From Dehalococcoidia bacterium (GTDB lineage Bacteria > Chloroflexota > Dehalococcoidia > Lucifugimonadales > CATOSD01), in assembly GCA_965262385.1 (NCBI GenBank), contig CBDHFB010000016.1, positions 3,510,032-3,574,031 on the forward strand: 64,000 nucleotides of DNA. Direction: 5' to 3'. A program made the translations under genes and the position numbers. The notes below the pieces were generated by a model. That model was given only the letters and a program-made list of their open reading frames with translations. It was not told where the DNA came from and did no database searches. Positions within the stretch are counted from its first letter, which is position 1, and each line of letters starts with the position of its first letter. Shown here piece by piece: positions 10,806 to 60,824 of this stretch.

Positions 10806-11348
10806 CTCCCCGCTCAACTCGTTGTAGATGAGGCTCAGCGATTCCAGGTTGGAGAGACTGCCCAGCTCCGGCGGCAGCTCCCCGCTCAAGCCGTTGCCGT
10901 AGAATTCCAGCGCTGTAACGCGCCCGTCGTCGTTGGTGATGACGCCGTACCATTCGCCGAGGGGCGCGTCGCTCAGCCAGTTGTCGCTTTCATCCCAGTT
11001 CTCACCGTTCGTTGCGTTGTAGAGGGCAACCAGGGCTTCCCGGTCCGTTTTGGCGGAGCCGGAGGCCGCGGGCGGCGCAGTCGCAGGCGCATCGGTGGCG
11101 GTGGTCGCGGCCCCTGACCCTGTCGTGGTAGGCGTCCGTACGGGGGAGGCCGGCGTCTCCGTTGGGGTGGACGTGGTCCGATCGGGGCCGGTCCCGGCGT
11201 CCGGCTCATCAGAGCCGCAGGCCGCGAGCGCCGCCGTAAGGGCCAGCGCAAGGACAACGCTCAACAGGGTCGCGTATCTTGTCGCGCGTGTACGGGTCGT
11301 TTTCTTTCCCTCCCGGTCTTGACCGGCACCATGTATCCGCAGATTCAT
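10734..11348 (-). CDS. Lipoprotein with leucine-rich repeats, apparently 3'-truncated after two LRRs
   Basis: Lipobox LTAALAAC followed by a Thr/Pro/Ala linker. REALVALYNATNGENWDESDNWLSDAPLGEWYGV is an LRR N-cap, followed by LSGELPPELGSLSNLESLSLIYNELSGEIP. The sequence turns non-LRR at about 10805. Confidence 0.6.
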   Translation of the reverse strand: MNLRIHGAGQDREGKKTTRTRATRYATLLSVVLALALTAALAACGSDEPDAGTGPDRTTSTPTETPASPVRTPTTTGSGAATTATDAPATAPPAASGSAKTDREALVALYNATNGENWDESDNWLSDAPLGEWYGVITNDDGRVTALEFYGNGLSGELPPELGSLSNLESLSLIYNELSGEIPPRRPDVRRGAPGPGPTAPVSL

Positions 11349-11584
11349 ACAGATAATATAGCGGAGTTACTCTGGGTGTCAATGCTGAGACACCCGTTTC
11401 GCCACTCCCAAATATGTGTTGGTATGTCGGCTTCCGCAGGGTTGAGCGGGCGAGCACGGACCGGGCTTGTCTTCGCCGGGTCGCAGCCCCGATAATGAGT
11501 ACCTGGGCTGTTCCCACGCCCTGGCAAAGGGTGGCGCGGCGCAATCACAGGCGTCGCGTCAGAGCAAGCTCTCGACGGGAATAG

Positions 11585-11617
11585 ATGAGCCTCCAACCCT
11601 GCGGGCCGGAGGCTCAT
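11585..11617 (-). terminator. Hairpin downstream of the native recombinase stop
   Basis: Perfect 10-bp stem atgagcctcc / ggaggctcat with a 13-nt loop, followed on the minus strand by ctattccc. Confidence 0.35.
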
Positions 11618-11648
11618 GGGGCCTATTCGGGGTAGCCTGAGCGAGTCC

Positions 11649-11679
11649 TTATATTAGGACCTCCCACCGAAAAGTTCGC
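11649..11679 (-). pseudogene. Native last 10 codons plus stop of the serine recombinase at 13368-14964, displaced by IS1182 copy 2
   Basis: The minus strand reads g cga act ttt cgg tgg gag gtc cta ata taa, giving (L)RTFRWEVLI*. Confidence 0.55.
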
Positions 11680-11683
11680 AATT

Positions 11684-13363
11684 GAGCCTGTCTCACAAGT
11701 CTGGGTTGGCATTGAGTGTGGGTCAGGTGTACGTTTGAAGCGACATCAAGGTGGGAGATATTGAGATGCCGCTTCGAGAGATGGGCCGAGAGCAGATTTG
11801 GATGTTGCCGCCGACGCTTGACGAGTTGTTGCCGCTGGATCATCCGGCGCGGTTCGTGGCCGAGTTCGTTGACGCTTTGGACCGGGAGGACTGGGGGGAG
11901 CTTGGGGTGAAGATAGACGGGGAGGTGCTGGGAGCGCCAGCCTACCATCCACGTGCGCTGTTGAGCGTGTGGCTGTACGGCTTCATGACCGGGGTGCGCT
12001 CGTGCCGGAAGCTGGAGGCGGCCTGCCGGGACCAGATACCGTACCTATGGCTGTCCGGGTGGCAGCATCCTGACCACAACACCCTGTGGCGGTTCTACAG
12101 AGGGCATCGGCAGGCCATGAGGAAGCTGTTCGAGCGTACCGTGCGTACGGCGGTGGCCATGAAGTTGGTGGATCTGGCGGTTCAGGCGGTGGATGGTACG
12201 AAGGTGGTCGCCAACGCGTCAGTGAACAGGAGCTACGATGCCGAGGGGCTGAGAGGGCTATTGGATCGGTTGGAGCGGGCGATAACCGACCTTGAGGCTC
12301 AGAACGAAGCGGGAGAAGAGGCCGCCGTTGCCCGTCTGCCTCAGAAGTTGGCTGACAAGGAGGTCTTGAGAGAGCAGGTGAGGCAGGCGATGGACGATCT
12401 CACGAGTCAGAAGCGCCACAAGCGCATCAACCTGACCGACCCAGACGCCAGGCTGATGAAGGGTAGGCAAGGCATCGTGGCTGGCTACAACGCTCAGGCT
12501 ATGGTCTCACCCACAGAGCCGGATGGGGGAGCGACCGGCATGTTGGTCACCGCCGTGGACGTGGTGGATGCGGCCAATGACAATGCCCTGCTGGTTCCGA
12601 TGGTCGAGCAGGCCGAAGAGACGACCGGGACAAGAGCACAGATGACGTTGGCCGACGCCGGATATTTCGCCGCAAGTCACCTGGCAGAGTGCACCCGTCG
12701 AGGTCAGCAGGTGGTGGTGTCCGAGTCACGGCAACGGTTCCTCAAAGACCCATATCACAAGGACCAATTCACCTACAACGAGCCGAGCGACAGCTTTACG
12801 TGTCCGCAGGGACAGACGCTTGCGTTCGTTCGCATACAGCATGCGAACGGAGTCCCGTTGCGACTGTACCGGGCTGCAGGTGCTGTCTGTCAGGCATGCC
12901 CGGCCTTCAGAGCCTGTACCAGAGCCAAAGAGATTGGGCGAAGCCTGGCCATAGGGCCGCACGATGAAGTGCTACGTCGCCATCGCTCCTGGATGTCCAC
13001 CTCAGTAGCTCAAGAGGCTTACAGGCTGAGAAAGCAGCTGGTCGAGCCTGTCTTCGGGATAATCAAGGAGCAACAGGGGGCACGGAGGTTCCTGCTGCGC
13101 GGCCTCGTCAACGTGGCGGCCGAGTGGACCATGTTGGCCACAGCCTTCAACCTGCGCACTCTCTGTCGGGTGTGGAGCTCCAGCCCCTTCATCGGTCTAT
13201 TTAATGGCCCGGAGCCTCGTCCCGTCTCCTGACCTGCAGTGATGACAGCAGCTGACCCATCGCTCCGTCGCCTGTACTACCCGCTCAGGCCAGGGCCTTT
13301 CAGCGAACCCTCCGACCTCTATCCGATCCCCCTATCCGCAATGCCCACTTCTGGGACAGGCTC
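11684..13363 (+). mobile_element. IS1182-family insertion sequence, copy 2 (1680 bp, no IS110 inside)
   Basis: Terminal repeats gagcctgtctcacaagtctggg (11684-) and the rc of cttctgggacaggctc (-13363). Flanked by aatt (11680-11683) and aact (13364-13367). The body matches copy 1 except for the last ~180 bp, which is a diverged homologue. Confidence 0.8.
11751..13232 (+). CDS. IS1182 family transposase (493 aa; alternative ATG at 11766)
   Basis: Identical to 1529-3010 except for the last 13 residues (IGLFNGPEPRPVS vs SHPFHGPKPCAVS). Confidence 0.9.
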   Translation: MGDIEMPLREMGREQIWMLPPTLDELLPLDHPARFVAEFVDALDREDWGELGVKIDGEVLGAPAYHPRALLSVWLYGFMTGVRSCRKLEAACRDQIPYLWLSGWQHPDHNTLWRFYRGHRQAMRKLFERTVRTAVAMKLVDLAVQAVDGTKVVANASVNRSYDAEGLRGLLDRLERAITDLEAQNEAGEEAAVARLPQKLADKEVLREQVRQAMDDLTSQKRHKRINLTDPDARLMKGRQGIVAGYNAQAMVSPTEPDGGATGMLVTAVDVVDAANDNALLVPMVEQAEETTGTRAQMTLADAGYFAASHLAECTRRGQQVVVSESRQRFLKDPYHKDQFTYNEPSDSFTCPQGQTLAFVRIQHANGVPLRLYRAAGAVCQACPAFRACTRAKEIGRSLAIGPHDEVLRRHRSWMSTSVAQEAYRLRKQLVEPVFGIIKEQQGARRFLLRGLVNVAAEWTMLATAFNLRTLCRVWSSSPFIGLFNGPEPRPVS

Positions 13364-14964
13364 AACTCGGTACGTGCAGGCCCACCATAACGTACCGAAT
13401 TCATAACTCGCCCGTTCAGGGCGATCTCTGCGGCGTCCGCTCCCCCCATTGGGCTATCGTCCGGCGTGGGTATGGAGTAGACGATGGCGGCCCTGCCGGG
13501 CTTGACCACGACCTCCTTCACGAAGGAACCGACGAAGGCTTTGGTCTCGGTCAGCTCGCTGGTCTTGAGGAACTCGCTCATCTCGGCGGCGAAGGTGGCG
13601 ATGGTGTCGGCGCTGTCGAGGAACTGCCGCCTCTCTTTCAGCAGCGCCCTCGCCTCCTCTGCGGCGATCTCCAGTTTCTCCTTGCGCTCCCGGTGCTCCC
13701 TGATGCGGTCTGAGGCGTCGGCCATCTCGGTGTCGGTCGTCTCGATGTGGTTCCAGATGCGCCCCAGCCGCTTCTTCACGTCCTCAAGCTCCTCCTCGAT
13801 GGTCTCCAGCCGCTGACGCTGGTCGCGGGCCACCCCGTCCATCTCCTCGTCCAGCAGCTTCACCAGGTCTCGGATGTTGGACTCGGTGAGGACGTTCTCC
13901 CTGATCTCGTTGACGATGAGCTTCTCGAAGCTCTTGGCGTTGAGCCTGGGGGTCTTGCAGGTTCCCTTGCCCCGCTTGAGCAGGGAGTGGCAGATGTAGT
14001 AGGTGTACTTGCCGCTCTTGGCCTCGGCTGCGGTCATGGCCTTGCCGCAGGTCTCGCACTTGGCGATGCCGCTGAGCAGGTAGGGGCTGGAGGCCCGGCG
14101 GGGGTTCACCTTCTTGGGGGCGCGGGATCCGAGCAACCTCCTGGCCTTCTGGAAGTCCCGCTTGGAGACGATGGCGGGGTGTGCGTCCTCGACGCGCACG
14201 GGCGGCGCGCCGTCCTTGGCTTTGGCTCCCCAGACCAAAGTGCCGGTGTAGGCTTCGTGGGAGAGCATGGTGTGGATGGTGGTCTTGAGCCACTTCTTGC
14301 CGTTGGTGGTTGGGATGCCCTCGGCGTTGAGGGTCTTGGTCACGTCGAGGATGCTCTTGCCCTGTAGCACCATGTCGAAGACCCGTCTGACCACGGCGTC
14401 GGCGGGCGGGTTCAGCTCAAGCTTGGGGCGCTTCGCGGCCCCATCCTGGACGTGGACCCGCTTGTAGCCGTAGGGTGCGTAGGTGGTCATCCAGAAGCCT
14501 CTCGACGCGGCCTCCCACATCCCCCGAACAACCTCCTGGGCGAGATTTTCGCTGTAAAACTCGTCCACGCTCTCGATGATGGCCTCAAGGAGCTTGCCCG
14601 TGGGGGTGTCGTCGGCCTGCTCGGTGATGGAGACCACTCGGACGCCTCTGCGTCTCAGCATGGACTTGAAGGCGACGGCGTGCTCGCGCTTGCGGGTGAA
14701 TCGGGAGAATTTCCAGACGAGAATCTCCTTGAAGGGAGCCTCGGGCTTGTTGGCCTCGTTCAGCATCTTCTGGAACTGGGGCCTGTCGGCGATGCGGCCG
14801 CTCTCGGCCTCGTCCACGTACTCGCGGGCGACCAGGTAGTCGTTCTTCTCGGCGTAGTCCCTGAGCGCCCTTAGCTGGGCGGCGATGGACAGGTCCACGT
14901 CCTGGCGGTCGCTGGACACCCTGGCGTAGAGGGCCGCTGGCGTGAGATCAAATCGCTCGTTCAT
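13300..14964 (-). CDS. Large serine recombinase (554 aa from ATG 14964); the last ~21 codons are read from IS1182 sequence
   Basis: Resolvase catalytic block YARVSSDRQ...SIAAQ. Recombinase domain, Zn-ribbon (CETCGKAMT...YYICHS...CKT) and a long coiled coil. aaggagg SD upstream of ATG 14964. Confidence 0.9.
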   Translation of the reverse strand: MNERFDLTPAALYARVSSDRQDVDLSIAAQLRALRDYAEKNDYLVAREYVDEAESGRIADRPQFQKMLNEANKPEAPFKEILVWKFSRFTRKREHAVAFKSMLRRRGVRVVSITEQADDTPTGKLLEAIIESVDEFYSENLAQEVVRGMWEAASRGFWMTTYAPYGYKRVHVQDGAAKRPKLELNPPADAVVRRVFDMVLQGKSILDVTKTLNAEGIPTTNGKKWLKTTIHTMLSHEAYTGTLVWGAKAKDGAPPVRVEDAHPAIVSKRDFQKARRLLGSRAPKKVNPRRASSPYLLSGIAKCETCGKAMTAAEAKSGKYTYYICHSLLKRGKGTCKTPRLNAKSFEKLIVNEIRENVLTESNIRDLVKLLDEEMDGVARDQRQRLETIEEELEDVKKRLGRIWNHIETTDTEMADASDRIREHRERKEKLEIAAEEARALLKERRQFLDSADTIATFAAEMSEFLKTSELTETKAFVGSFVKEVVVKPGRAAIVYSIPTPDDSPMGGADAAEIALNGRVMNSVRYGGPARTELSLSQKWALRIGGSDRGRRVR

Positions 14965-24409: not shown

Positions 24410-27400
24410 ATGATGTTCGCTAAACTGCACCGCCGGCAGCGAATCCTGTCGGCGATATGCGCCTTACTTTTGGCCTTCCTCACCTTGAGCAGCGCTACTG
24501 CGCAAGCGGCCAACAGCCAACCGGCGTTCCCGTCCAGCGAGGACGGCGCCCGATCGGTGGCCGAGAACACCACCGCCGGCGCAAACATCGGCGCGCCGGT
24601 TGGGGCCACGGACGCGGACAACGATGCGTTGACCTACACCCTGGGCGGCGACGATGCCGCGTCCTTCACTATTGTCCCCTCCACCGGCCAGTTGCAGACG
24701 CTGGCCGCCCTCAATTTTGAGGGCAAGAACTCCTACAGCGTAACGGTGTCGGCCAGCGACCGGAAGGATGCCACTGGCAACGCCGACACGGCCATCGACG
24801 CCACTATTGACGTGACCATCAGCGTAACCAACGTGGACGAGCCCGGAACGGTCATCCTGTCTCCCGCCCAGCCACGGGTCGGCGAGGTGCTCCGGGCCAG
24901 GGTGAGCGATCCGGACGGAGTTGTGGTTGGCTCAGGTATCTGGGGCTGGCTGAAGTCCAGGGACGGGACACCAGACTGGTCGACCGTTCAAAATAGTGCG
25001 CCTTACCCTAGCTCCTACGAAGTTCAAGCCGCCGACCTGAATTTCTACTTGCAGGCCACCGTGAGTTATGTGGACGGGCACGGACTCGGCAAGAGCGCGG
25101 TAGGTGTCTCCCAGCGTGTGGCTGCCAAAGCGGCGGCGCCGCAGATTCATGTGGAACAGCTGGTCTCCGGCCTGAGCATCCCCTGGGGAATCGCCTTTGC
25201 GCCCGACGGGACGATGCTGTTCACCGAACGCGCCCGCAAGCTGAGCGTCCGCCTCGCCGACGGAACGGTGCGGAATGTCACCGCTGACCTCAGTGATGTG
25301 ATGGTCGCATCAGAAATCGGGTTTATGGCGATAGTCGTCGATCCGGGCTTCGCCACCAACCGGCGGTTCTATACGTGCCAGGGCCATACCGGGGACAAGG
25401 TGCAGGTAATTGCCTGGACCATGAACGCCGGATATACGGAGGCCACCCGGGTCGCCGACCCCTTGGTCGATGGGATACCTGGCAGCAGTAGAAACCATTC
25501 CGGCAAGCATTCCGGCTGCCGGCTGCGCTTCGGGCCGGACGGCTATCTTTGGATTGCTACCGGGGATGCGACAACCGGATCGGCGCCCCAGAGCCTGACC
25601 AACCTTGGCGGCAAGGTGCTGCGGGTAGTTGCATCGACTGGCGCCGGGGCGCCGGGCAACCCATTCTCTGCCCCCAATTCGCCGCTGATTTACACCTACG
25701 GCCACCGCAACCCCCAGGGCCTGGCCCTGCGCCCCGGCAGCAGCGGCCAGATGTGGTCGGTGGAGCACGGCCCGGCCTTTGACGACGAGATCAATCTGTT
25801 GACCGCCGGCGGCAATTACGGCTGGGACCCGGCGCCCGGGTACAACGAGTCAACACCCATGACCGACCTGGAGAAATTCCCCAGCGCCATCGAGGCCAAG
25901 TGGGCCTCGGGGAACAAATCCCTGGCCGCCAGCGGCGGCATCTTCCTGGAGGGCGCCTGGTGGGGCCCGTGGGACGGCCGGCTGGCGGTGGCGTCCCTCA
26001 AGGACAAGACATTGCGCGTCCTTGAGTTCAGTCCGTCCGGCGACCTGTTGAGCGAGATCAGCGTCAGCAAACTCAAAAACGTCTATGGCCGACTCCGCAC
26101 CCCGATGATGGGGCCGGATGGCGCCCTGTATGTCTCCACCTCCGAGGACAACGGCGAGGACAAGATCCTGCTGGTCACTCCCCAGGTGGCTCCCCGGTTC
26201 CCAGTCAATACCGACACCACCTGGGATACGCCGGAGAACGCCGATATCACCACCATCGTCGCCACTGTTGCGGCCGAAGAGCCGAACGGCGAGGCGATCA
26301 CCTACTCCCTGGGCGGGACCGACGCCGCCTCCTTCAACATAAAAGATACTGCCGTCGGGGAATTGCGGGCCAACGCGCCCCTGGACTACGAGACCAAATC
26401 CTCGTACCAGGTCGATGTTATCGCCACCGACCCCAATAGCTTGAGCAGCAAAGTAACACTGACCATCACAGTAACCAACGAGGACGATGCGGGCGCGATA
26501 ACCCTGTCGTCCCAAGCACCCGTCGTTGGCATAGACCTGACGGCCAGTATCACCGACCCCGACGGGGGTGTTTCCAGCATAGGTTGGACCTGGAGTAAAT
26601 CCTCGGACCAAACTACGTGGACCGCTATTGCCGGCGCAACGTCGTCCACGTACCGACCGGTTGCCGCCGACGTTGGCAGCTACCTGCGAGCCACGGCGGC
26701 TTACACCGACAGCCAAGGATCGGGCAAGAATGCGCAACAGAAAACGGACGCCCCGGTTGCGGCGGCTCAGATCGGGGTGAGCGTGTCCGAGACCGCGCTG
26801 ACAGTCGCCGAGGGCGCCAGCGCCACCTACACCGTGGTCCTGGACGGCCAGCCCGCCTCCGATGTGGTAATCGAGGTGACCAGCAACAATTCCGACGTGA
26901 CGCTGGACACCGACGCGGCGGCGTCCGGCAACCAGACCACGCTGACCTTCACCCGGGCCAACTGGAGCACGGCGCAGACGGTGACGGTGGCCGCGGCCGA
27001 CGACGCCGACGCGGTGAACGACACGGCCTCCATCGCCCACGCGGTGGTGGCCGCCGAAAGCGCCGACGAGTACGACGCGGCGACCATCGCCGGGGTGGTG
27101 GTGACCGTGACCGACGACGACACCGCCGGGGTGACCGTGTCCGAAAGCACGCTGACGTTGGACGAGGGCGCCAGCGCCACCTACACGGTGGTCCTGGACG
27201 CTCAGCCCGCCGCCGCCGTGCTGATTCGCATTGACAACAACAACCAGGACGTGAAGGTGGACGCCAACGCGACGATACCAGGCCTCCAGCCCGGCATGTT
27301 CTTCACCCCGAGCAACTGGAACACGCCGCAGACGGTGATGGTGTCCGCCGCCCAGGACGCCGACGCGGTGGACGACAAAGCCCAGCTGAGCCACGCTGTA

Positions 27401-30400
27401 GACTATCGCGACAGGTCCGGCGGCCCGTACAGCCGCGTGGTCGCCGTCGGGGTGGCCGTGACCGTCACCGACGACGACACCGCCGGGGTGACGGTGTCCG
27501 AAACCACGCTGACGGTGACCGAGGGCGGCAGCGCCACCTACACGGTGGTCCTGGATGCCCAGCCCGCCGCCGACGTGCTGATTCGCATTGACCTCAACAA
27601 CCTGGACGTGGGGGTGGACGCCGATGCGGGTAGGGCAGGCGCCCAGGTCTTCATGCTCTTCACCCCGGGCAACTGGAACACGCCGCAGACGGTGAAGGTG
27701 TCCGCCGCCCAGGACGCCGACGCCGCGGACGACCAAGCCCAGCTGGGCCACGCGGTAAGCTATACGACCGACAGGTCCGGCCCGTACAACAGCGTGCTCG
27801 CCGCCGGGGTGGCCGTGACCGTCACCGACGACGAGACCGCCGGGGTGACGGTGTCCGAAACCACGCTGACAGTGGTCGAGGGCGCCAGCAACACCTACAC
27901 GGTGAAACTGGACCCCCAGCCCTCCTCCGACGTGGTGATCAGCGTCACCGCCAGCGGCAATACGGACGTGACCGTGTCTCCGGCGCGGCTGACCTTCACC
28001 TCGAGCAACTGGAGCACGGCGCAGACGGTGACGGTGTCCGCCGCCCACGACGCCGACGCGGTGAACGACACGGCCTCCATCGCCCACGCGGTGGTGGCCG
28101 CCGAAAGCGCCGACGAGTACGACACCGCGACCATCGCCGGGGTGGCGGTGACCGTCGCCGATGACGACGCGGGCGTGACAAACTCCGAATCCACGCTGGT
28201 GGTGGCCGAGGGCGGCAGCGCCACCTACACCGTGGCGCTGAGCACCCGGCCCTCCGCCGACGTGGCGATTATCATCGCCGACGACAACCCGGACGTGACG
28301 GCGGACACCGACGCCGCGACGTCCGGCAACCAGGACAGGCTGACCTTCACCCCGGCCAACTGGAGCACACCGCAGACGGTGACGGTGGCCGCCGCACACG
28401 ACGCCGACGCGGTGAACGACAAAGCCCAGCTGCGCTACACTGTGTCGTCCGGCAACGCGTCCGGCCCGTACAGCGGCTTGGCCGCCGACGGGGTGGCCGT
28501 GACCGTCACCGACGACGACGACGCCGGCGTGACGGTGTCCGAAACCACGCTGACCGTGGCCGAGGGCGGCAGCGCCACCTACACGGTGGTCCTGGACGCC
28601 CAGCCCACCTCCGACGTGGTGATCAACGTAACCAAGAGCGGCAGCTCCGACGTAACGGTGTCGCCGGCCACCCTGACCTTCACCGGGGACAACTGGGACA
28701 CGGCGCAGACGGTGACAGTGGCCGCCGCCCACGACGCCGACGCGGCGGACGACGCGGCGTCCATCACCCACGCGGTGGCGCCCGCCGAAAGCGCCGACGA
28801 GTACGACACCGCGACCATCGCCGGGGTGGCGGTGACCGTCGACGACGACGAGACCGCCGGGGTGACGGTGTCCAGGCCCAGGATGAGGATGGACGAGGGC
28901 GGCAGCAACACCTACACCGTGGCGCTGAACGCCCAGCCCGCCTCCGACGTGGTGATCGCGGTGACCAGCAACAATTCCGACGTGACGGTGGACACCGACG
29001 CGGCGACGTCCGGCAGCCAGAACACGCTGACCTTCACCCCGAGCAACTGGAGCACGGCGCAGACGGTGACGGTGGCCGCGGACCAGGACGCCGACGCGGC
29101 GAACGACAAGGCCGCCATCACCCACGCGGTGGTGGCCGCCCAAAGCGCCGACGAGTACGACAGCGTGACCATCGCCCGGGTGAGGGTGACCGTCGTCGAC
29201 GACGAAATCGGCACCGCCGGGGTGAGAAGCTCCGTGTCCAGGCTGTCGGTGGCCGAGGGCGGCAGCGCAACCTACACCGTGGTCCTGGACGCGCAGCCCG
29301 AGGCGAGGGTGAGGGTCTGGATTTTTCTCATCTCCGACGGGAACGTGTCACGGACGCCGAGTCGGCTGGAATTCACGCCGTCCAACTGGAGCACGGCGCA
29401 GACGGTGACGTTGTCCGCCGCCCAGGACGCCGACACGAGGATCAGCGCGGCCCAGATCTCCTACTTTATATCGTGCGCCAGCAGATGCAGACCGTACAAC
29501 AACAACACGACATACAGCAACGTGGTGGAGGTGATCGTCGTCGACGACGAAGTTGTAGGGGTAACGCTGCCCGAAACCACGCTGACGGTGCTCGAGGGTG
29601 GCAACCGCACCTACACCGTGGTGCTGAACAGGCAGCCCACCTCCGACGTGGTGATCAACGTCACCAAAAGCGGCAGTGACGACCTGACGGCGACTCCGGC
29701 CAGCCTGACCTTCACCACGAGCAACTGGAGCACGCCGCAGACGGTGACGGTGCGGGCCGCCCAGGACGCCGACGCAGCGAACGACACGGCGTCCATCACC
29801 CACGCGGTGGTGGCCTCCCGGAGCGCCGACGAGTACGACGCCGTGAGCATCGCCGGGGTGGCCGTGACCGTCACCGACGACGAGACCGCCGGGGTGACGG
29901 TGTCCGAAACCACGCTGACGGTGGCCGAGGGCGGCAGCGGCGCCTACACCGTGGTCTTGGACGTGCAGCCCACCTCCGACGTGGTAATCAACGTAACCAA
30001 AAGCGGCAGTGACGACGTAACGGTGTCTCCGGCCACCCTGACCTTCACGACGGCCAACTGGAGCACGGCGCAGACGGTGACGGTGGCTGCCGCCCAGGAC
30101 GCCGACGCGGTGAACGACGCGGCCTCCATCGCCCACGCCGTCGACGCCTCCCGGAGCGCCAACGAGTACGACAACATGACCATCGCCGGGGTGGCCGTGA
30201 CCGTCACCGACGACGACACCGCCGGGGTGAGCGTGTCCGAGACCACGCTGACGGTGGACGAGGGCGGCCGCGGCTCCTACACGGTGAGGCTGAACACGCA
30301 GCCCACCTCCAACGTGGTGATCAGCGTCACCAAGACCGGTAGTACCGACGTGACGGTGTCGCCGGCCACCCTGACCTTCACGACGAGCAACTGGAGCACG

Positions 30401-33400
30401 GCGCAGACGGTGACGGTGGCTGCCGCCCAGGACGCCGACGCGGTGAACGACGCGGCCTCCATCACCCACGCGGTGGTGGCCTCCCGGAGCGCCGACGAGT
30501 TCGACGCCGTGAACATCGCCGGGGTGGCCGTGACCGTCACCGACGACGAGACCGCCGGGGTGACGGTGTCCAAATCGACGCTGACGGTGGCCGAGGGGGG
30601 CAGCGGCGCCTACACGGTGGTCCTGGACGCCCTGCCCACCTCCGACGTGGTGATCAGCGTCACCAGGACCGGCAGCAGCGACGTGACGCTGGACACCGAC
30701 ACGGGGACGTCCGGCAACCAGACCACGCTGACCTTCACCCCGGCCAACTGGGACACGGCGCAGACGGTGACGGTGGCTGCCGCCCAGGACGCCGACGCGG
30801 TGAACGACGCGGCCTCCATCACCCACGCGGTGGTGGCCTCCCGGAGCGCCGACGAGTTCGACGCCGTGACCATCGCCGGGGTGGCCGTGACCGTCACCGA
30901 CGACGAGACCGCCGGGGTGACGGTGTCCAAATCGACGCTGACGGTGGACGAGGGCGGCAGCGGCTCCTACACGGTGAGGCTGAACCTTCAGCCCGCCTCC
31001 GACGTGGTGATCAGCGTAACCAGGACCGGCAGCCCCGACGTGACGGTGTCTCCGGCCACCCTGACCTTCACCCGGGCCAACTGGAGCACGGCGCAGACGG
31101 TAAGGGTGTCCGCCGCCCAGGACGCCGACGCGGTGAACGACGCGGCCTCCATCGCCCACGCGGTGGTGGCCGCCAGCAGCGCCAACGAGTACGACGCCGT
31201 GACCATCGGCTCGGTGGCGGTGACCGTCACCGACAACGACGCCGGGGCGACGGTGTCCGAGACCACGCTGACGATTACGGAGGGCAACAGTTCCACCTAC
31301 ACGGTGGTCCTGGACGCCCAGCCCGCCTCCGACGTGGTGATCACGGTGAGCAGCGACAATTCGGACGTGACGGTGTCGCCGGCCACCCTGACCTTCACGC
31401 CGTCCAACTGGAGCACGGCGAAGACGGTGACGGTGGCCGCGGCCCAGGACGCCGACGCGGTGAACGACACGGCCGCCATCGCCCACGCCGTCGACGCCGC
31501 CCGCAGCGCCAACGAGTTCGACGCCGTGACCATCGCCGGGGTGGCCGTGGCCGTGACCGTCACCGACGACGACACCGCCGGGGTGACCGTGTCCGTCATT
31601 TCGGTGACGGCGCCGGAGGGCGACAGCGGCGCCTACACGGTGGTCCTGGACGTGCAACCCAGCTCCGACGTAGTGATAAGCGTAACCAAAAGCGGCAGTC
31701 CCGACGTAACGGTGTCTCCGGCCACGCTGACCTTCACGCCGTCCAACTGGGACACGGCGCAGACGGTGACGGTGCGGGCCGCCCAGGACGCCGACGCGGT
31801 GGACGACGCGGCGTCCATCAGCCACGCGGTGGTGGCCGCCCGCAGCGCCAACGAGTTCGACCTAGTCACCGTGGCCGGGGTGACGGTGACCGTCGACGAC
31901 GACGACACCGCCGGGGTGACGGTCTACCCCACGAGTTACAATACGTTTGAGGACACCGCGAACGCCTACACCGTGAAGCTGGACGCCCAACCCAGCTCCG
32001 ACGTGGTGATCCGGGTCACCTCCACCGGCAGTTCCGACGTGACGGTGGACACCGACCGAAGGACGCCCGGCAACCAGGACACGCTCACCTTCACCCCGAG
32101 CAACTGGAGCACGGCGCAGCGAGTGTGGGTGGTGAGCGCAGCGGACGACGACGCGGTGAACGACGTGGCCTCCATCAGCCACGCGGTGGTGGCCGCCGAA
32201 AGCGCCGACGAGTACGACAGCGTGATGATCGTCTCGTTTGCGGTGACCGTCACCGACGACGAGACCGCCGGGGTGACGGTGTCCGAAACCACGCTGACGG
32301 TTGCCGAGGGCGGCAGCGCAACCTACACGGTGGTCCTGGACGCCCAGCCCGCCTCCGACGTGGTGATCGGCGTCACCAAGACCGGCAGCTCCGACGTGAC
32401 GCTGGACACCGACACGGGGACGTCCGGCAACCAGACCACGCTGACCTTCACCCCGTCCAACTGGGACACGGCGCAGACGGTGACGGTAGCTGCCGCCCAG
32501 GACGCCGACGCGGTGGACGGCGCGGCCTCCATCGCCCACGCCGTCGACGCCGCCCGCAGCGCCAACGAGTACGACAACGTGACCATCGCCGGGGTGGCGG
32601 TGACCGTCACCGACGACGACACCGCCGGGGTGACGGTGTCCGCGTCGTCGGTGACGGTTGCCGAGGGCGGCAGCGCAACCTACACGGTGGTGCTGAACCT
32701 TCAACCCACCTCCGACGTGGTGATCAACGTGACCAAACGCGGCAGCCCCGACGTGACGGTGTCGCCGGCGCGGCTGACCTTCACGACGGCCAACTGGAGC
32801 ACGGCGCAGACGGTGACGGTGGCCGCGGCCCAGGACGCCGACGCGGTGGACGACGCGGCCGCCATCGCCCACGCCGTCGACGCCGCCCGCAGCGCCAACG
32901 AGTACGACAACGTGACCATCGCCGGGGTGGCCGTGACCGTCACCGACGACGACACCGCCGGGGTGAGCGTGTCCGAGACCACGCTGACGGTGGACGAGGG
33001 CGGCCGCGGCTCCTACACGGTGAGGCTGAACACGCAGCCCACCTCCGACGTGGTGATCGGCGTAACCAGGAGCGGCAGCCCCGACGTGACAGTGTCTCCG
33101 GCCACCCTGACCTTCTCCTCGTCCAACTGGGCCACGGCGCAGACGGTGACGGTGGCTGCCGCCCAGGACGCCGACGCGGTGAACGACACGGCCGCCATCA
33201 CCCACGCGGTCGACGCCTCCCGGAGCGCCAACGAGTTCGACGCCGTGACCATCGCCGGGGTGACGGTGACCGTCGACGACGACGAGACCGCCGGGGTGAC
33301 GGTGTCCGAAACCACGCTGACGGTGGCCGAGGGCGGCAGCGGCGCCTACACCGTGGTCCTGGACGTGCAGCCCACCTCCGACGTGGTGATCAACGTCACC

Positions 33401-36400
33401 AAAAGCGGCAGCAGCGACGTGACGGTGTCTCCGGCCACCCTGACCTTCACGACGGCCAACTGGAGCACGGCGAAGACGGTGACGGTGGCTGCCGCCCAGG
33501 ACGCCGACGCGGTGAACGACGCGGCCTCCATCGCCCACGCCGTCGACGCCGCCCGCAGCGCCAACGAGTACGACAACATGACCATCGCCGGGGTGGCCGT
33601 GACCGTCACCGACGACGACACCGCCGGGGTGAGCGTGTCCGAGACCACGCTGACGGTGGACGAGGGCGGCCGCGGCTCCTACACGGTGAGGCTGAACACG
33701 CAGCCCACCTCCAACGTGGTGATCAGCGTCACCAAGACCGGCAGTACCGACGTGACGGTGTCGCCGGCCACCCTGACCTTCACCACGAGCAACTGGAGCA
33801 CGGCGAAGACGGTGACGGTGGCTGCCGCCCAGGACGCCGACGCGGTGAACGACGCGGCCTCCATCTCCCACGCCGTCGACGCCTCCCGCAGCGCCGACGA
33901 GTTCGACGCCGTGAACATCGCCGGGGTGGCGGTGGCCGTGACCGACGACGAGACCGCCGGGGTGAGCGTGTCCGAGACCACGCTGACGGTGGACGAGGGC
34001 GGCCGCGGCTCCTACACGGTGAGGCTGAACACGCAGCCCACCTCCAACGTGGTGATCAGCGTCACCAAGACCGGCAGTACCGACGTGACGGTGTCGCCGG
34101 CCACCCTGACCTTCACCACGAGCAACTGGAGCACGGCGAAGACGGTGACGGTGGCTGCCGCCCAGGACGCCGACGCGGTGAACGACGCGGCCTCCATCAC
34201 CCACGCGGTGGTGGCCGCCAGCAGCGCCAACGAGTTCGACCTAGTCACCGTGGCCGGGGTGGCCGTGACCGTCACCGACGACGAGACCGCCGGGGTGACG
34301 GTGTCCGAAACCACGCTGACGGTTGCCGAGGGCGGCAGCGCAACCTACACGGTGGTCCTGGACGCCCAGCCCACCTCCGACGTGGTGATCAACGTCACCA
34401 AAAGCGGCAGCAGCGACGTGACGGTGTCTCCGGCGCGGCTGACCTTCACGACGGCCAACTGGAGCACGGCGAAGACGGTGACGGTGGCTGCCGCCCAGGA
34501 CGCCGACGCGGTGGACGACGCGGCCGCCATCTCCCACGCCGTCGACGCCTCCCGCAGCGCCAACGAGTTCGACGCCGTGAACATCGCCGGGGTGGCGGTG
34601 GCCGTGACCGACGACGACACCGCCGGGGTGAGCGTGTCCGAAACCGCGCTGGAGGTGGCCGAGGGCGGTAGCGGCTCCTACACGGTGAGGCTGAACACGC
34701 AGCCCACCTCCGACGTGGTGATCGGCGTAACCAGGAGCGGCAGCCCCGACGTGACAGTGTCTCCGGCCACCCTGACCTTCTCCTCGTCCAACTGGGCCAC
34801 GGCGCAGACGGTGACGGTGGCTGCCGCCCAGGACGCCGACGCGGTGAACGACGCGGCCGCCATCTCCCACGCCGTCGACGCCTCCCGCAGCGCCGACGAG
34901 TTCGACGCCGTGAACATCGCCGGGGTGGCGGTGGCCGTGACCGACGACGAGACCGCCGGGGTGACGGTGTCCGAAACCGCGCTGGAGGTGGCCGAGGGCG
35001 GTAGCGGCTCCTACACGGTGAGGCTGAACACGCAGCCCACCTCCAACGTGGTGATCAGCGTCACCAAGACCGGCAGTACCGACGTGACGCTGGACACCGA
35101 CACGGGGACGTCCGGCAACCAGACCACGCTGACCTTCACCCCGGCCAACTGGGACACGGCGCAGACGGTGACGGTGGCTGCCGCCCAGGACGCCGACGCG
35201 GTGGACGACGCGGCCGCCATCTCCCACGCCGTCGACGCCTCCCGCAGCGCCAACGAGTTCGACGCCGTGAACATCGCCGGGGTGGCGGTGGCCGTGACCG
35301 ACGACGAGACCGCCGGGGTGAGCGTGTCCGAAACCGCGCTGGAGGTGGCCGAGGGCGGTAGCGGCTCCTACACGGTGAGGCTGAACACGCAGCCCACCTC
35401 CAACGTGGTGATCAGCGTCACCAAGACCGGCAGTACCGACGTGACGCTGGACACCGACACGGGGACGTCCGGCAACCAGACCACGCTGACCTTCACGACG
35501 GCCAACTGGAGCACGGCGCAGACGGTGACGGTGGCTGCCGCCCAGGACGCCGACGCGGTGAACGACGCGGCCTCCATCGCCCACGCCGTCGACGCCGCCC
35601 GCAGCGCCAACGAGTACGACAACGTGATGATCGCCTCGTTTGCCGTGACCGTCACCGACGACGATACCGCCGGGGTGACGGTGTCCGAAACCACGCTGAC
35701 GGTGGACGAGGGCGGCAGCGGCTCCTACACGGTGAGGCTGAACACGCAGCCCGCCTCCGACGTGGTGATCAACGTCACCCGCAGCGGCAGCGCCGACGTG
35801 ACGGCGTCTCCGGCCACCCTGACCTTCACTCCGGGCAACTGGAACACGGCGCAGACGGTAAGGGTGGCCGCGGCGCAGGACGACGACGCGGTGAACGACA
35901 CGGCCTCCATCGCCCACGCCGTCGACGCCTCCCGCAGCGCCAACGAGTACGACGCCGTGAGCATCGCCGGGGTGGCCGTGACCGTCACCGACGACGATAC
36001 CGCCGGGGTGAGCGTGTCCGAAACCGCGCTGACGGTTGCCGAGGGCGGCAGCGCAACCTACACCGTGGTCCTGGACGCCCAGCCCACCTCCGACGTGGTG
36101 ATCGGCGTCACCAAGACCGGCAGTACCGACGTGACAGTGTCTCCGGCCACCCTGACCTTCACCACGAGCAACTGGAGCACGGCGCAGACGGTGACGGTGG
36201 CTGCCGCCCAGGACGCCGACGCGGTGGACGACGCGGCGTCCATCACCCACGCGGTGGTGGCCTCCCGGAGCGCCGACGAGTTCGACGCCGTGAACATCGC
36301 CGGGGTGGCGGTGGCCGTCACCGACGACGAGACCGCCGGGGTGAGCGTGTCCGAAACCGCGCTGACGGTTGCCGAGGGCGGTAGCGGCTCCTACACGGTG

Positions 36401-39400
36401 AGGCTGAACACGCAGCCCACCTCCAACGTGGTGATCAGCGTCACCAGGACCGGCAGTACCGACGTGACGCTGGACACCGACACGGGGACGTCCGGCAACC
36501 AGACCACGCTGACCTTCACGACGGCCAACTGGAGCACGGCGCAGACGGTGACGGTGGCTGCCGCCCAGGACGCCGACGCGGTGAACGACGCGGCCTCCAT
36601 CGCCCACGCCGTCGACGCCGCCCGCAGCGCCAACGAGTACGACAACGTGATGATCGCCTCGTTTGCCGTGACCGTCACCGACGACGATACCGCCGGGGTG
36701 ACGGTGTCCGAAACCACGCTGACGGTGGACGAGGGCGGCAGCGGCTCCTACACGGTGAGGCTGAACACGCAGCCCGCCTCCGACGTGGTGATCAACGTCA
36801 CCCGCAGCGGCAGCGCCGACGTGACGGCGTCTCCGGCCACCCTGACCTTCACTCCGGGCAACTGGAACACGGCGCAGACGGTAAGGGTGGCCGCGGCGCA
36901 GGACGACGACGCGGTGAACGACACGGCCTCCATCGCCCACGCCGTCGACGCCTCCCGCAGCGCCAACGAGTACGACGCCGTGAGCATCGCCGGGGTGGCC
37001 GTGACCGTCACCGACGACGATACCGCCGGGGTGAGCGTGTCCGAAACCGCGCTGACGGTTGCCGAGGGCGGCAGCGCAACCTACACCGTGGTCCTGGACG
37101 CCCAGCCCACCTCCGACGTGGTGATCGGCGTCACCAAGACCGGCAGTACCGACGTGACAGTGTCTCCGGCCACCCTGACCTTCACCACGAGCAACTGGAG
37201 CACGGCGCAGACGGTGACGGTGGCTGCCGCCCAGGACGCCGACGCGGTGGACGACGCGGCCGCCATCTCCCACGCCGTCGACGCCTCCCGCAGCGCCAAC
37301 GAGTACGACGCCGTGACCATCGCCGGGGTGGCGGTGACCGTCACCGACGACGACACCGCCGGGGTGACGGTGTCCGCGTCGTCGCTGACGGTGGCTGAGG
37401 GCGGCAGCGCAACCTACACGGTGGTGCTGAACCTTCAACCCACCTCCGACGTGGTGATCAACGTAACCAAAAGCGGCAGCAGCGACCTGACGGCGACTCC
37501 GGCCAGCCTGACCTTCACCACGAGCAACTGGAGCACGCCGCAGACGGTGACGGTGCGGGCCGCCCAGGACGCCGACGCGGTGGACGACGCGGCGTCCATC
37601 ACCCACGCGGTGGTGGCCTCCCGGAGCGCCAACGAGTACGACGCCGTGAGCATCGCCGGGGTGGCCGTGACCGTCACCGACGACGAGACCGCCGGGGTGA
37701 CGGTGTCCGAAACCACGCTGACGGTGGCCGAGGGCGGCAGCGGCGCCTACACCGTGGTCCTGGACGCCCAGCCCACCTCCGACGTGGTAATCAACGTCAC
37801 CCGCAGCGGCAGTACCGACGTAACGGTGTCTCCGGCCACCCTGACCTTCACCACGAGCAACTGGAGCACGGCGCAGACGGTGACGGTGGCTGCCGCCCAG
37901 GACGCCGACGCGGTGGACGACGCGGCCTCCATCTCCCACGCCGTCGACGCCTCCCGCAGCGCCAACGAGTACGACAACGTGAGCATCGCCGGGGTGGCCG
38001 TGACCGTCACCGACGACGAGACCGCCGGGGTGACGGTGTCCGAAACCACGCTGACGGTTGCCGAGGGCGGCAGCGCAACCTACACGGTGGTCCTGGACGC
38101 CCAGCCCACCTCCGACGTGGTAATCAACGTCACCCGCAGCGGCAGTACCGACGTGACGGTGTCTCCGGCCACCCTGACCTTCACCACGAGCAACTGGAGC
38201 ACGGCGCAGACGGTGACGGTGGCTGCCGCCCAGGACGCCGACGCGGTGGACGACGCGGCGTCCATCACCCACGCGGTGGTGGCCTCCCGGAGCGCCGACG
38301 AGTTCGACGCCGTGAACATCGCCGGGGTGGCGGTGACCGTCACCGACGACGAGACCGCCGGGGTGAGCGTGTCCGAAACCGCGCTGACGGTTGCCGAGGG
38401 CGGTAGCGGCTCCTACACGGTGAGGCTGAACACGCAGCCCACCTCCAACGTGGTGATCAGCGTCACCAGGACCGGCAGTACCGACGTGACGCTGGACACC
38501 GACACGGGGACGTCCGGCAACCAGACCACGCTGACCTTCACGACGGCCAACTGGAGCACGGCGCAGACGGTGACGGTGGCTGCCGCCCAGGACGCCGACG
38601 CGGTGAACGACGCGGCCTCCATCGCCCACGCCGTCGACGCCGCCCGCAGCGCCAACGAGTACGACAACGTGATGATCGCCTCGTTTGCCGTGACCGTCAC
38701 CGACGACGATACCGCCGGGGTGACGGTGTCCGAAACCACGCTGACGGTGGACGAGGGCGGCAGCGGCTCCTACACGGTGAGGCTGAACACGCAGCCCGCC
38801 TCCGACGTGGTGATCAACGTCACCCGCAGCGGCAGCGCCGACGTGACGGCGTCTCCGGCCACCCTGACCTTCACTCCGGGCAACTGGAACACGGCGCAGA
38901 CGGTAAGGGTGGCCGCGGCGCAGGACGACGACGCGGTGAACGACACGGCCTCCATCGCCCACGCCGTCGACGCCTCCCGCAGCGCCAACGAGTACGACGC
39001 CGTGAGCATCGCCGGGGTGGCCGTGACCGTCACCGACGACGATACCGCCGGGGTGAGCGTGTCCGAAACCGCGCTGACGGTTGCCGAGGGCGGCAGCGCA
39101 ACCTACACCGTGGTCCTGGACGCCCAGCCCACCTCCGACGTGGTGATCGGCGTCACCAAGACCGGCAGTACCGACGTGACAGTGTCTCCGGCCACCCTGA
39201 CCTTCACCACGAGCAACTGGAGCACGGCGCAGACGGTGACGGTGGCTGCCGCCCAGGACGCCGACGCGGTGGACGACGCGGCCGCCATCTCCCACGCCGT
39301 CGACGCCTCCCGCAGCGCCAACGAGTACGACGCCGTGACCATCGCCGGGGTGGCGGTGACCGTCACCGACGACGACACCGCCGGGGTGACGGTGTCCGCG

Positions 39401-42400
39401 TCGTCGCTGACGGTGGCTGAGGGCGGCAGCGCAACCTACACGGTGGTGCTGAACCTTCAACCCACCTCCGACGTGGTGATCAACGTAACCAAAAGCGGCA
39501 GCAGCGACCTGACGGCGACTCCGGCCAGCCTGACCTTCACCACGAGCAACTGGAGCACGCCGCAGACGGTGACGGTGCGGGCCGCCCAGGACGCCGACGC
39601 GGTGGACGACGCGGCGTCCATCACCCACGCGGTGGTGGCCTCCCGGAGCGCCAACGAGTACGACGCCGTGAGCATCGCCGGGGTGGCCGTGACCGTCACC
39701 GACGACGAGACCGCCGGGGTGACGGTGTCCGAAACCACGCTGACGGTGGCCGAGGGCGGCAGCGGCGCCTACACCGTGGTCCTGGACGCCCAGCCCACCT
39801 CCGACGTGGTAATCAACGTCACCCGCAGCGGCAGTACCGACGTAACGGTGTCTCCGGCCACCCTGACCTTCACCACGAGCAACTGGAGCACGGCGCAGAC
39901 GGTGACGGTGGCTGCCGCCCAGGACGCCGACGCGGTGGACGACGCGGCCTCCATCTCCCACGCCGTCGACGCCTCCCGCAGCGCCAACGAGTTCGACGCC
40001 GTGAGCATCGCCGGGGTGGCCGTGACCGTCACCGACGACGAGACCGCCGGGGTGACGGTGTCCGAAACCGCGCTGACGGTTGCCGAGGGCGGTAGCGGCT
40101 CCTACACGGTGAGGCTGAACACGCAGCCCACCTCCAACGTGGTGATCAGCGTCACCAGGACCGGCAGTACCGACGTGACGCTGGACACCGACACGGGGAC
40201 GTCCGGCAACCAGACCACGCTGACCTTCACGACGGCCAACTGGAGCACGGCGCAGACGGTGACGGTGGCTGCCGCCCAGGACGCCGACGCGGTGGACGAC
40301 GCGGCGTCCATCGCCCACGCCGTCGACGCCGCCCGCAGCGCCAACGAGTACGACAACGTGATGATCGCCTCGTTTGCGGTGACCGTCACCGACGACGAGA
40401 CCGCCGGGGTGACGGTGTCCGAAACCACGCTGACGGTTGCCGAGGGCGGCAGCGCAACCTACACGGTGGTGCTGAACCTTCAACCCACCTCCGACGTGGT
40501 GATCAACGTAACCAAAAGCGGCAGCAGCGACCTGACGGCGACTCCGGCCAGCCTGACCTTCACCACGAGCAACTGGAGCACGCCGCAGACGGTGACGGTG
40601 CGGGCCGCCCAGGACGCCGACGCGGTGGACGACGCGGCGTCCATCACCCACGCGGTGGTGGCCTCCCGGAGCGCCAACGAGTACGACGCCGTGAGCATCG
40701 CCGGGGTGGCGGTGACCGTCACCGACGACGAGACCGCCGGGGTGACGGTGTCCGAAACCACGCTGACGGTGGCCGAGGGCGGCAGCGGCGCCTACACCGT
40801 GGTCCTGGACGTGCAGCCCACCTCCGACGTGGTGATCAACGTAACCAAAAGCGGCAGTACCGACGTAACGGTGTCTCCGGCCACCCTGACCTTCACCACG
40901 AGCAACTGGAGCACGGCGCAGACGGTGACGGTGGCTGCCGCCCAGGACGCCGACGCGGTGGACGACGCGGCCTCCATCTCCCACGCCGTCGACGCCTCCC
41001 GCAGCGCCAACGAGTACGACAACGTGAGCATCGCCGGGGTGGCCGTGACCGTCACCGACGACGAGACCGCCGGGGTGACGGTGTCCGAAACCACGCTGAC
41101 GGTTGCCGAGGGCGGCAGCGCAACCTACACGGTGAAGCTGAACCTTCAGCCCACCTCCGACGTGGTGATCAACGTCACCCGCAGCGGCAGCGCCGACGTG
41201 ACGGCGTCTCCGGCCACCCTGACCTTCACTCCGGGCAACTGGAGCACGGCGCAGACGGTAAGGGTGGCCGCGGCGCAGGACGACGACGCGGTGAACGACA
41301 CGGCCTCCATCGCCCACGCGGTGGTGGCCGCCCAGAGCGCCAACGAGTATGACGGCGTTACCGTCGCCGGCGTGACGGTAACCGTCACTGACGACGACAC
41401 GCCGCCGCCCACCGGAGGCGGGAGTCCGCCCACTGGAGGTGGGGGTCCGCCCGACCGGAGTCCGACGTTCGCCTCGCGGACGGTAGACGACCAGGTCTAC
41501 ACAGTAGGCGAAGACGTAGGGACGGTGAGCCTGCCCCCCGCTCTTGGGGGCGACGGCAGGCTGCAATACAGCTTGTCGCCAGACCTGCCCGAGGGGCTGC
41601 GCTTCAACTCGGACCGCACCATCACCGGCACGCCCGGGGCGACGTTCACCAGGACGCGGTTCACCTATACCGCGACCGATTCCGACGGTGACCGTGTTCA
41701 CCTGCGCTTCTATATCACCGTGAGCGAGAGGCCGGGGGTGAGCGTGTCAGCCCCCACGGTGACGGTGACCGAGGGCGGCAGCGGAACCTACACGGTGAAG
41801 CTGAACCTTCAGCCCACCTCCGACGTGGTGATCAACGTCACCCGCAGCGGCAGCGCCGACGTGACGGCGTCTCCGGCCACCCTGACCTTCACTCCGGGCA
41901 ACTGGAGCACGGCGCAGACGGTAAGGGTGGCCGCGGCGCAGGACGACGACGCGGTGAACGACACGGCCTCCATCGCCCACGCGGTGGTGGCCGCCCAGAG
42001 CGCCAACGAGTATGACGGCGTTACCGTCGCCGGCGTGACGGTAACCGTCACTGACGACGACACGCCGCCGCCCACCGGAGGCGGGAGTCCGCCCACTGGA
42101 GGTGGGGGTCCGCCCGACCGGAGTCCGACGTTCGCCTCGCGGACGGTAGACGACCAGGTCTACACAGTAGGCGAAGACGTAGGGACGGTGAGCCTGCCCC
42201 CCGCTCTTGGGGGCGACGGCAGGCTGCAATACAGCTTGTCGCCAGACCTGCCCGAGGGGCTGCGCTTCAACTCGGACCGCACCATCACCGGCACGCCCGG
42301 GGCGACGTTCACCAGGACGCGGTTCACCTATACCGCGACCGATTCCGACGGTGACCGTGTTCACCTGCGCTTCTATATCACCGTGAGCGAGAGGCCGGGG

Positions 42401-44534: not shown

Positions 44535-44615
44535 CTATAGCGAAACCTCCCACCGGAAAGTTCGCAGTACGGTACACTCCGGCCCACCAACGAAGACTCG
44601 AACCAAGCCGTCACA
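44535..44615 (-). pseudogene. Isolated C-terminal remnant of a large serine recombinase gene
   Basis: The minus strand reads ...DGLVRVFVGGPECTVLRTFRWEVSL*. This aligns with ...NGRVMNSVRYGGPARTELRTFRWEVLI* of the recombinase at 13368-14964 plus 11649-11679. Confidence 0.5.
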
Positions 44616-60725: not shown

Positions 60726-60824
60726 GACGGTTCCGAAGAGTTCGCGGTACGGTACGCTTAGGCCCACCAGCATCGCTATCGGAGGATCACCGCCCTTCTG
60801 AAGCATCGTGGTTGGGATGTTAAT

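Follow-up and report, generated by a model that had tools for sequence, protein, structure and literature searches.

Independent insertions of an IS1182-family element at a preferred palindromic target in Dehalococcoidia genomes

The window analysed here, a 64,000-nucleotide stretch of a Dehalococcoidia bacterium genome (contig CBDHFB010000016.1 of assembly GCA_965262385.1, positions 3,510,032 to 3,574,031), carries two copies of an insertion sequence (IS) of the IS1182 family and a large serine recombinase gene whose 3' end is interrupted by one of them, copy 2; the other, copy 1, is itself split by two IS110-family elements (Table 1). Taken as a whole, this arrangement is in all likelihood explained by a target preference of the IS at a short dispersed motif, which we infer to be an arm of the recombinase's attachment site.

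Both IS copies were assigned to the IS1182 family by the NCBIfam equivalog NF033551 (370 bits against a cutoff of 270). Copy 2 also has the layout of the family, with one transposase open reading frame (ORF), bearing the Pfam domains DUF772 and DDE_Tnp_1_6, within terminal inverted repeats over 1,680 bp; IS1182-family elements have a total length of about 1.3-2 kb (ISfinder). Its terminal repeats start GAGCCTGTCTCACAAGT... and, in reverse complement, GAGCCTGTCCCAGAAGT..., and at greater length the ends read GAGCCTGTCTCACAAGTCTGGG (left) and GAGCCTGTCCCAGAAGTGGG (right, read inwards). A 99% inverted match links it to window positions 1525-3071.

The interrupted gene was identified as a large serine recombinase by its matches to Resolvase (PF00239, 1.6e-32), Recombinase (PF07508, 1.8e-22) and Zn_ribbon_recom (PF13408, 9.1e-13) and by the N-terminus ALYARVSSDRQ. 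It belongs to neither the CcrB nor the XisF type, with scores of 129 bits on the CcrB model (cutoff 900) and 107 on the XisF model (cutoff 375). As called, the ORF at 13300-14964 encodes 554 amino acids (aa), is identical to database protein P0001 and ends ...GGPARTEL-SLSQKWALRIGGSDRGRRVR and a stop. Joining position 13364 to 11679 restores a 543-aa frame that ends ...GGPARTELRTFRWEVLI and a stop, and removal of copy 2 with one copy of the flank gives ...cgt acc gag ttg cga act ttt cgg tgg gag gtc cta ata taa, which translates as RTELRTFRWEVLI and a stop. Ten native codons were lost by the insertion and 21 IS-encoded codons gained; the same IS-derived tail was found at another locus, L049. The initial annotation had placed copy 2 at 11684-13363, between AATT (11680-11683) and AACT (13364-13367), had read the restored frame as ...RTELRTFRWEVLI and a stop, and had attributed the last ~21 codons of the called ORF to the IS; all of this was confirmed, and the C-terminus of P0001 fixes the number of IS-derived codons at exactly 21.

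Other states of the same site were found elsewhere. It is empty in a 95%-identical recombinase ortholog (L081), where it reads ACCGAATTGCGAACTTTTCGC, and in the recombinase ortholog of another metagenome it holds a miniature element of ~180 bp with IS1182-type ends (GAGCCTGTCTCAGAAGTC...ACTTCTGAGACAAGCTC) and AATT on both sides (L082:1763-1943). At L085 the recombinase leads into TEL, after which come the first 7 bp of the IS (its tip, GAGCCTG) and an IS110 element. A further locus, L025, shares 236 bp of the tail-side flank of the window at 97.9% and has the IS in the opposite orientation.

Copy 1 has junctions (126-129 AATT, 130...4379, 4380-4383 AATT) at the homologous position of the same motif as copy 2, and its tail flank translates ELRTFRWEVLI and a stop. 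Upstream of it, stop codons close every frame of window positions 1-129. The one that yields CKTELRTFRWEVLI and a stop reads ...W*L*IQSR*AE*CGLCKTEL upstream (asterisks are stop codons), the recombinase C-terminus signature VMNSV lies in a different frame from it, and the segment resembles remnants of the L011/L042 type. As all frames are closed, copy 1 lies in a stand-alone degenerate remnant of the motif and not, as had been claimed in the initial annotation, in an intact paralogous recombinase.

Both terminal repeats of copy 1 are in turn occupied, at GAGCCTG^TCTCAGAAG, by a 1,302-bp element with a 357-aa ORF. The NCBIfam model NF033542 for RNA-guided transposases (180 bits, cutoff 140), the lack of terminal inverted repeats and the fixed target position all place this element in the IS110 family. 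Its junctions, GAGCCTG/ATGCTCC and ATCGCAG/TCTCA, are identical in the two window insertions and in two other assemblies (L009:3637-4936; L085 from ~7610), and the two insertions have created a perfect 1,322-nt inverted repeat at 126-1447 and 3062-4383 (100% identity). Four guide-like matches were noted in the non-coding left end of the element (213 nt): TTCTGAGAC corresponds to the target left half, GAGCCTG, in reverse complement, to its right half, TATAGGAGC to the donor right end and CATCGCAG to the reverse complement of the donor left end. A bridge-RNA mechanism has been described for IS110/IS621, and the arrangement of this left end is consistent with a bridge RNA directed at the IS1182 repeat.

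Table 1. Mobile elements, target motifs and associated genes in the window (positions are window coordinates; ORF, open reading frame; TSD, target-site duplication).
Feature	Position	Strand	Remarks
IS1182 copy 1	130..4379	-	1,646 bp in three pieces (130-136, 1439-3070, 4373-4379); IS110-family element in both terminal repeats
IS110-family element in right terminal repeat of copy 1	137..1438	-	transposase ORF 152-1225
Second, identical IS110-family element, in left terminal repeat of copy 1	3071..4372	+	ORF 3284-4357
Upstream half of copy 1 target	1..129	+	degenerate recombinase 3'-end remnants, no open frame; ends in TSD AATT 126-129
TSD AATT and downstream half of copy 1 target motif (GCGAACTTTTCGCTGGGAGGTCCTGATATGA)	4380..4414	+	
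IS1182-family insertion sequence, copy 2, complete	11684..13363	+	1,680 bp; ends match 76 related elements
Terminal inverted repeats of copy 2	11684-11705 and 13342-13363		imperfect
Transposase gene of copy 2	11751..13232	+	493 aa, sole ORF of element
TSD of copy 2, tail side	11680..11683	.	AATT
TSD of copy 2, body side	13364..13367	.	AACT = AGTT in gene orientation; one mismatch to AATT
Displaced recombinase 3' end (LRTFRWEVLI and stop) and downstream half of target motif	11649..11683	-	
IS-derived 21 codons and stop, now ending the called recombinase ORF	13300..13363	-	P0001 C-terminus ...TELSLSQKWALRIGGSDRGRRVR
Large serine recombinase gene body (codons 1-533 and first two bases of codon 534)	13364..14964	-	Pfam; 120 homologs at 90% identity or more
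Single 6,595-aa ORF	24410..44197	+	glucose/sorbosone dehydrogenase-type domain, cadherin domains, many fn3_6 repeats; most of candidate island
Unoccupied stand-alone motif copy (GGTGGGCCGGAGTGTACCGTACTGCGAACTTTCCGGTGGGAGG)	44546..44600	-	ORF ending in motif ~35 codons; candidate far island boundary
Partial unoccupied motif copy (upstream half and GCGAACTCTTCGG)	60740..60768	-	

A search with the transposase, limited to one genome per species, recovered 473 relatives. The best 80 of these loci were fetched, all of them from Dehalococcoidia metagenome-assembled genomes and with 84-96% aa identity, and both IS ends could be located in 76. These related elements are 1,642-1,689 bp long, and their 4-bp flanks are identical in 50 of the 76 pairs, indicating that a 4-bp target duplication is the rule; together with L081, which is empty for both the window target and that of L001, this identifies the elements as products of transposition. 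The complete motif was found at the exact insertion position of the window in 24 of the 76 copies (15 of them in one orientation, nine in the opposite one), and one half of it only at ~17 more. The motif is ~45 bp long and reads GGTGGGCC-N5-GTACYG-[NNNN]-GCGAACTTTTCGSTGGGAGG; the matched duplications within it vary by site (AATT, TACT, AGTA, AGTT, ATTT and AACT), which requires many separate insertion events.

A recombinase homolog was found near the IS in only five of the 80 loci, and the ORF that ends in the motif comprises 20-97 codons at the nine loci in body-IS-tail orientation. The motif exists independently of the IS, as JGI metagenomes scanned for its downstream half yielded 16 stretches, all unoccupied, a sample too small for an estimate of occupancy. 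Two unoccupied copies are also present in the window, at 44546-44600 and 60740-60768, and neither ends a long ORF.

What the element recognises was derived from 29 non-motif insertions with clean duplications, that is, from 58 half-sites. Their consensus is A-R-Y-T followed by G-N-G-A-A-C-T-T-T-T, with A at duplication position 1 in 41 of the 58 and, after the duplication, G33, G41, A36, A27 and C26 at positions 1, 3, 4, 5 and 6 and T in 26-35 half-sites at positions 7-10. The full target approximates the palindrome AAAAGTTCNC-ANNT-GNGAACTTTT. The downstream half of the motif, AATT followed by GCGAACTTTTCG, is a near-perfect half-site in which every informative position is matched, which explains the repeated independent insertions, in either orientation, without any role for the codons. 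The IS1182 lineage shows an ordinary target preference, base-specific and palindromic, and behaves as a conventional DDE transposon with a 4-bp duplication. In the window, copy 2 is an intact IS that integrated, with a 4-bp duplication, into the motif where it forms the last 17 codons of the large serine recombinase gene, and copy 1 is a separate insertion into the stand-alone, non-coding remnant of the motif.

The same symmetry might be read structurally, with a transposase that recognises a hairpin or cruciform, as proposed for IS1272, and a motif chosen because it can fold. Hairpins are entered repeatedly and in both orientations by IS1272/TnSha1 (PMC4923244, PMC5678879); here the idealised consensus forms a perfect palindrome with a folding energy of -10.3 kcal/mol (z -5.2), and small stems, ACCGAA/TTCGGT or GCGAA/TTCGC, occur in the motif. 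The three natural motif variants, however, fold no better than shuffles (z -1.4, -1.4 and -0.4), the non-motif sites share specific bases and not symmetry alone, and the duplication is a clean 4 bp, in contrast to the target deletion reported for IS1272. Structure-directed targeting is considered unlikely on this evidence, and preference for specific bases better describes the target.

With the IS110 insertions removed, copies 1 and 2 differ at a single position (13, in the left repeat) over IS positions 1-1508. From position 1509 onwards the identity drops to 64 of 91 aligned positions, a further 38 columns being gaps, and the total lengths are 1,646 and 1,680 bp. It is because the DNA diverges from this point that the transposases differ at their C-termini, by seven residues that all fall within the last 13 (positions 481-491 of 493); the statement of the initial annotation that the IS bodies are identical except for the last 13 residues holds for the proteins but not for the DNA. 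Both right-end modules occur as separate natural variants in other genomes, and by this pattern the two window copies are mosaics that arose from recombination or conversion between IS variants, and neither is a simple duplicate of the other.

The flanks behave differently from the IS bodies. The downstream flank of copy 1 (4384-4414) and the tail of copy 2 match at 28 of 31 nt up to the stop codon and are unrelated beyond it, the upstream (body) flanks are ~64% similar with gaps, and all flank similarity is restricted to the ~75-nt dispersed motif. That the flanks of the two copies are clearly diverged, as the initial annotation had judged by eye, was thus confirmed, and the comparison of flank with IS identity that it had recommended showed the two to be unequal. 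Flank identity lies far below IS identity (1,507 of 1,508 positions) and nothing is shared beyond the motif, and a segmental duplication was rejected on these grounds. The earlier proposal of two independent insertions into a preferred target is supported by this difference and by the frequency with which surveyed copies occupy the same position. The initial annotation had further taken the target to be a Glu-Leu codon pair: both copies do interrupt exactly the same position, but what is recognised is the DNA half-palindrome, ANNT followed by GNGAACTTTT, and not the codon pair.

A history that retains a single ancestral insertion, followed by duplication of the recombinase 3' end together with the IS and by divergence of the flanks while gene conversion kept the IS bodies identical, appears very improbable. 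It would account for the position and orientation relative to the motif that the two copies share, and the abrupt switch at IS position 1509, from one difference in 1,508 bp to ~70% identity, indicates that conversion or recombination does occur. Against this, the flanks are similar over only ~75 nt of a dispersed repeat, the right-end modules are two different natural variants, and many demonstrably independent insertions are found at the same site elsewhere. A composite transposon spanning 130-13363 was also considered and rejected, as its outer flanks do not make one contiguous target with a matching duplication: the outer flanks of both IS copies are upstream motif halves and the inner flanks downstream halves, so that each IS has its own complete target and the inverted pair is not a composite transposon.

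Recombination between IS copies has nevertheless left traces in the survey. On contig CBDCTY010000002.1 two copies have swapped partners, one (L026) with the upstream motif half and AATT on its left and AGAG on its right, the other (L027) with AGAG on its left and AATT and the downstream half on its right, which indicates a rearrangement by recombination between IS copies that reshuffled the flanks. Site-specific exchange might similarly have multiplied a small number of insertions, the IS having reached the motif in one or a few events and the recombinase having then spread the IS-bearing arms. The motif does seem to be exchanged by site-specific recombination, as judged from the variable tails described below, and mismatched duplications occur at several IS copies located in the motif (e.g. 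L007, L010, L011, L018, L047 and L049). Such a history does not agree with the occurrence of both orientations, with at least six different matched duplications that correspond to local core variants, with the different IS subtypes (1,650-, 1,680- and 1,689-bp classes) at the site, or with the non-motif sites that show the same consensus. As the sole cause it is improbable; hitch-hiking of this kind may contribute to the pattern, but a target preference is needed all the same.

The nature of the motif was approached through the 120 closest homologs of the restored recombinase (P0001-P0120, at least 90% identity). These are identical up to ...EIALNGRVMNSVRHGG(P) and from there diverge into several classes of tail that have nothing in common, so that the proteins measure 531-707 aa in total. 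One class ends in TVDRTIFEMWLGAL and a stop. Others read antisense through tRNA genes (GWTRTNDLGLIRTAL and CRTRTCGLLRVKQAL, each followed by a stop, GGTRTPYLFNAIEALSQ... and CGDRTHDTRIKSP...), a tRNA-Ile being confirmed in L083 and tRNA-Ala-like and other genes being deduced from the peptides; there are also tails antisense to the 3' end of another recombinase, tails of the TELRTFR type seen in the window and IS-derived tails. The switch falls directly after GGTGGGCCT, where the motif begins, and in the DNA alignment the orthologs are invariant through CATGGTGGGCCT and divergent directly after. At L083:4078-4154 a tRNA-Ile(GAT), detected by ARAGORN on the opposite strand, overlaps the last 58 nt of the recombinase gene, TGGTGGGCC being the complement of the tRNA-Ile 3' end ...GGCCCACCA. 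As orthologs that are otherwise nearly identical share no common tail beyond GGP, the 10 native residues at the end are probably not essential, and the IS-fused recombinase is probably still catalytically competent, its tail after GGP being naturally interchangeable.

A tRNA or tmRNA origin of the motif itself was suggested by a T-loop-like stretch (GGTTCGAGTC...) ahead of GGTGGGCC, and was rejected. No such gene was detected by ARAGORN beside the IS in 26 loci or in the window, an Rfam search found nothing, and in the recombinase frame the T-loop-like bases read V-R-V-F-V-G-G-P, homologous to recombinase C-termini.

These patterns suggest that the recombinase crosses over at or next to the core that precedes the variable tails, the crossover being predicted within TGGTGGGCCTG, and that the sequence following it would be an exchangeable arm of the attachment site. 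The IS target would then lie in one arm type, 19-23 nt past the GGTGGGCC core, and the motif would be conserved and multi-copy because it is the arm beside the recombinase's own crossover site. In the window the motif copies at 11.65 and 44.55 kb are in direct orientation, and the recombinase and the intact motif at 44.55 kb bracket 33 kb with an RHH gene, HTH regulators and the gene of a 6,595-aa surface protein; on this reading, motif copies would mark the boundaries of recombinase-borne islands, here probably at 11.65-44.6 kb. Copy 2 would part the outer section of one attachment-site arm from its core, and excision of the island could be impaired.

Several observations weigh against target preference at an attachment arm as the full account. 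The target duplication of copy 2 is imperfect (AGTT/AATT); AATT is present at the body-side position in the orthologs L081, L082 and L085, so that the mismatch arose either through a silent mutation of GAA to GAG once the IS was in place or through exchange of the flank, and as recombination between IS copies reshuffles flanks, the body and tail beside copy 2 need not be an original pair. The target of copy 1 is known only as far as the left edge of the window, which hides anything preceding it. Specificity is loose, with 37 of the 76 IS copies outside the motif; the initial annotation had held that copies in unrelated contexts would argue against target preference, and such copies do exist, yet they share the consensus, which speaks for a preference and not for strict site specificity. 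The loci were chosen for carrying the IS, and motif occupancy is therefore not estimable from the survey. The attachment arm is read from sequence patterns, neither an excised circle nor an empty attB having been observed, and the presence of the same arm type at both boundaries of the candidate island requires an extra assumption, namely tandem accretion into an existing boundary.

A hierarchy of three layers in Dehalococcoidia can be suggested only tentatively: islands at tRNA CCA ends, IS1182 on the arms of these islands and RNA-guided IS110 on the IS1182 repeats. The IS1182-family element would have evolved to insert harmlessly into the conserved arm, at ~20 bp from the crossover, would ride the islands and possibly lock them, and IS110 in both IS1182 ends may disable its host or hitch onto it.

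Further mobile-element remnants were observed in the window. The 3' end of another large serine recombinase (63768-64000, minus strand), 46% identical to residues 455-532, continues past the right edge; its tail is ...NGSPPQSNP, with CCACCA in the sense direction. The segment at 47516-48538 (minus strand) is a remnant of a distant IS1182-like transposase, 27% identical in aa to that of copy 2. A ~400-nt direct repeat lies in the 7.3 kb that separate the IS1182 copies (5351-5754 and 9926-10327, 88-92% identity), the first copy of which overlaps the 3' end of an IS1380-family transposase gene at 5610-6791 (minus strand; 344 bits, cutoff 180) and the second of which is probably a fragment of another copy.

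That the IS1182 family chooses symmetric targets is known already, and no new mechanism is involved here. Target choice in this family is poorly defined, the literature found describing only hairpin targeting without a sequence consensus, and the present lineage offers a clean consensus together with a consistent 4-bp duplication and a natural hot spot that has been entered independently dozens of times. Annotation is affected as well: in these genomes the called recombinase ORFs commonly terminate in codons of foreign origin (of an IS, of a tRNA gene in antisense or of another recombinase read backwards), and through these variable tails gene callers report many spurious length variants (531-707 aa), which should not be taken for different proteins. 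The nested, apparently RNA-guided IS110 insertions and the link to attachment arms are the more interesting by-products; if the motif is an attachment arm, IS occupancy could influence island mobility, and the nested IS110 would be a natural RNA-guided element aimed at another transposon.

Among the closest known systems are IS1272/TnSha1, hairpin-targeting elements of the IS1182 family in staphylococci (PMC4923244, PMC5678879). They have in common with the present element the transposase family, non-random symmetric targets and re-entry of the same target in both orientations. IS1272 was reported to lack a primary-sequence consensus and to delete part of the target hairpin without a duplication (PMC4923244, PMC5678879), whereas the element described here has a base-specific consensus and a regular 4-bp duplication.

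The candidate island can be compared with the ssrA islands of Dehalococcoides, which are associated with the serine recombinase DsiB and have direct repeats of an RNA-gene end at their borders (McMurdie et al. 2011, PMC3146451). In those islands, from the same bacterial class, a ~540-aa recombinase is located at the edge, as in the candidate island, its 3' end pointing to the repeat at the boundary, and the sequence around the repeat is conserved (PMC3146451). The ssrA islands target the tmRNA T-loop, whereas the switch point here is a tRNA CCA end (tRNA-Ile in L083) or the motif itself; the low CcrB score of the window recombinase, given above, is another difference, and no IS has been reported to target the boundaries of the ssrA islands, unlike the motif here.

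Fixed positions within the terminal repeat or recombination site of another mobile element are also known for the IS110/IS1111-type elements IS4321/IS5075, which insert in Tn21-type terminal repeats, and for the IS1111-attC group, in both cases with a fixed orientation. The nested elements resemble these in being IS110-family insertions at a fixed position in both repeats of copy 1. They differ in that the host is an IS1182-family IS and the left end of the element has guide-like matches to target and donor. Lastly, IS1397 and ISKpn1 target repeated palindromic (REP) sequences and, like the IS1182 lineage, use a short, conserved, multi-copy and non-essential genomic repeat as a landing pad; here, in contrast, the repeat is tied to recombinase-borne islands and is partly coding, and the IS family and the size of the duplication are different.

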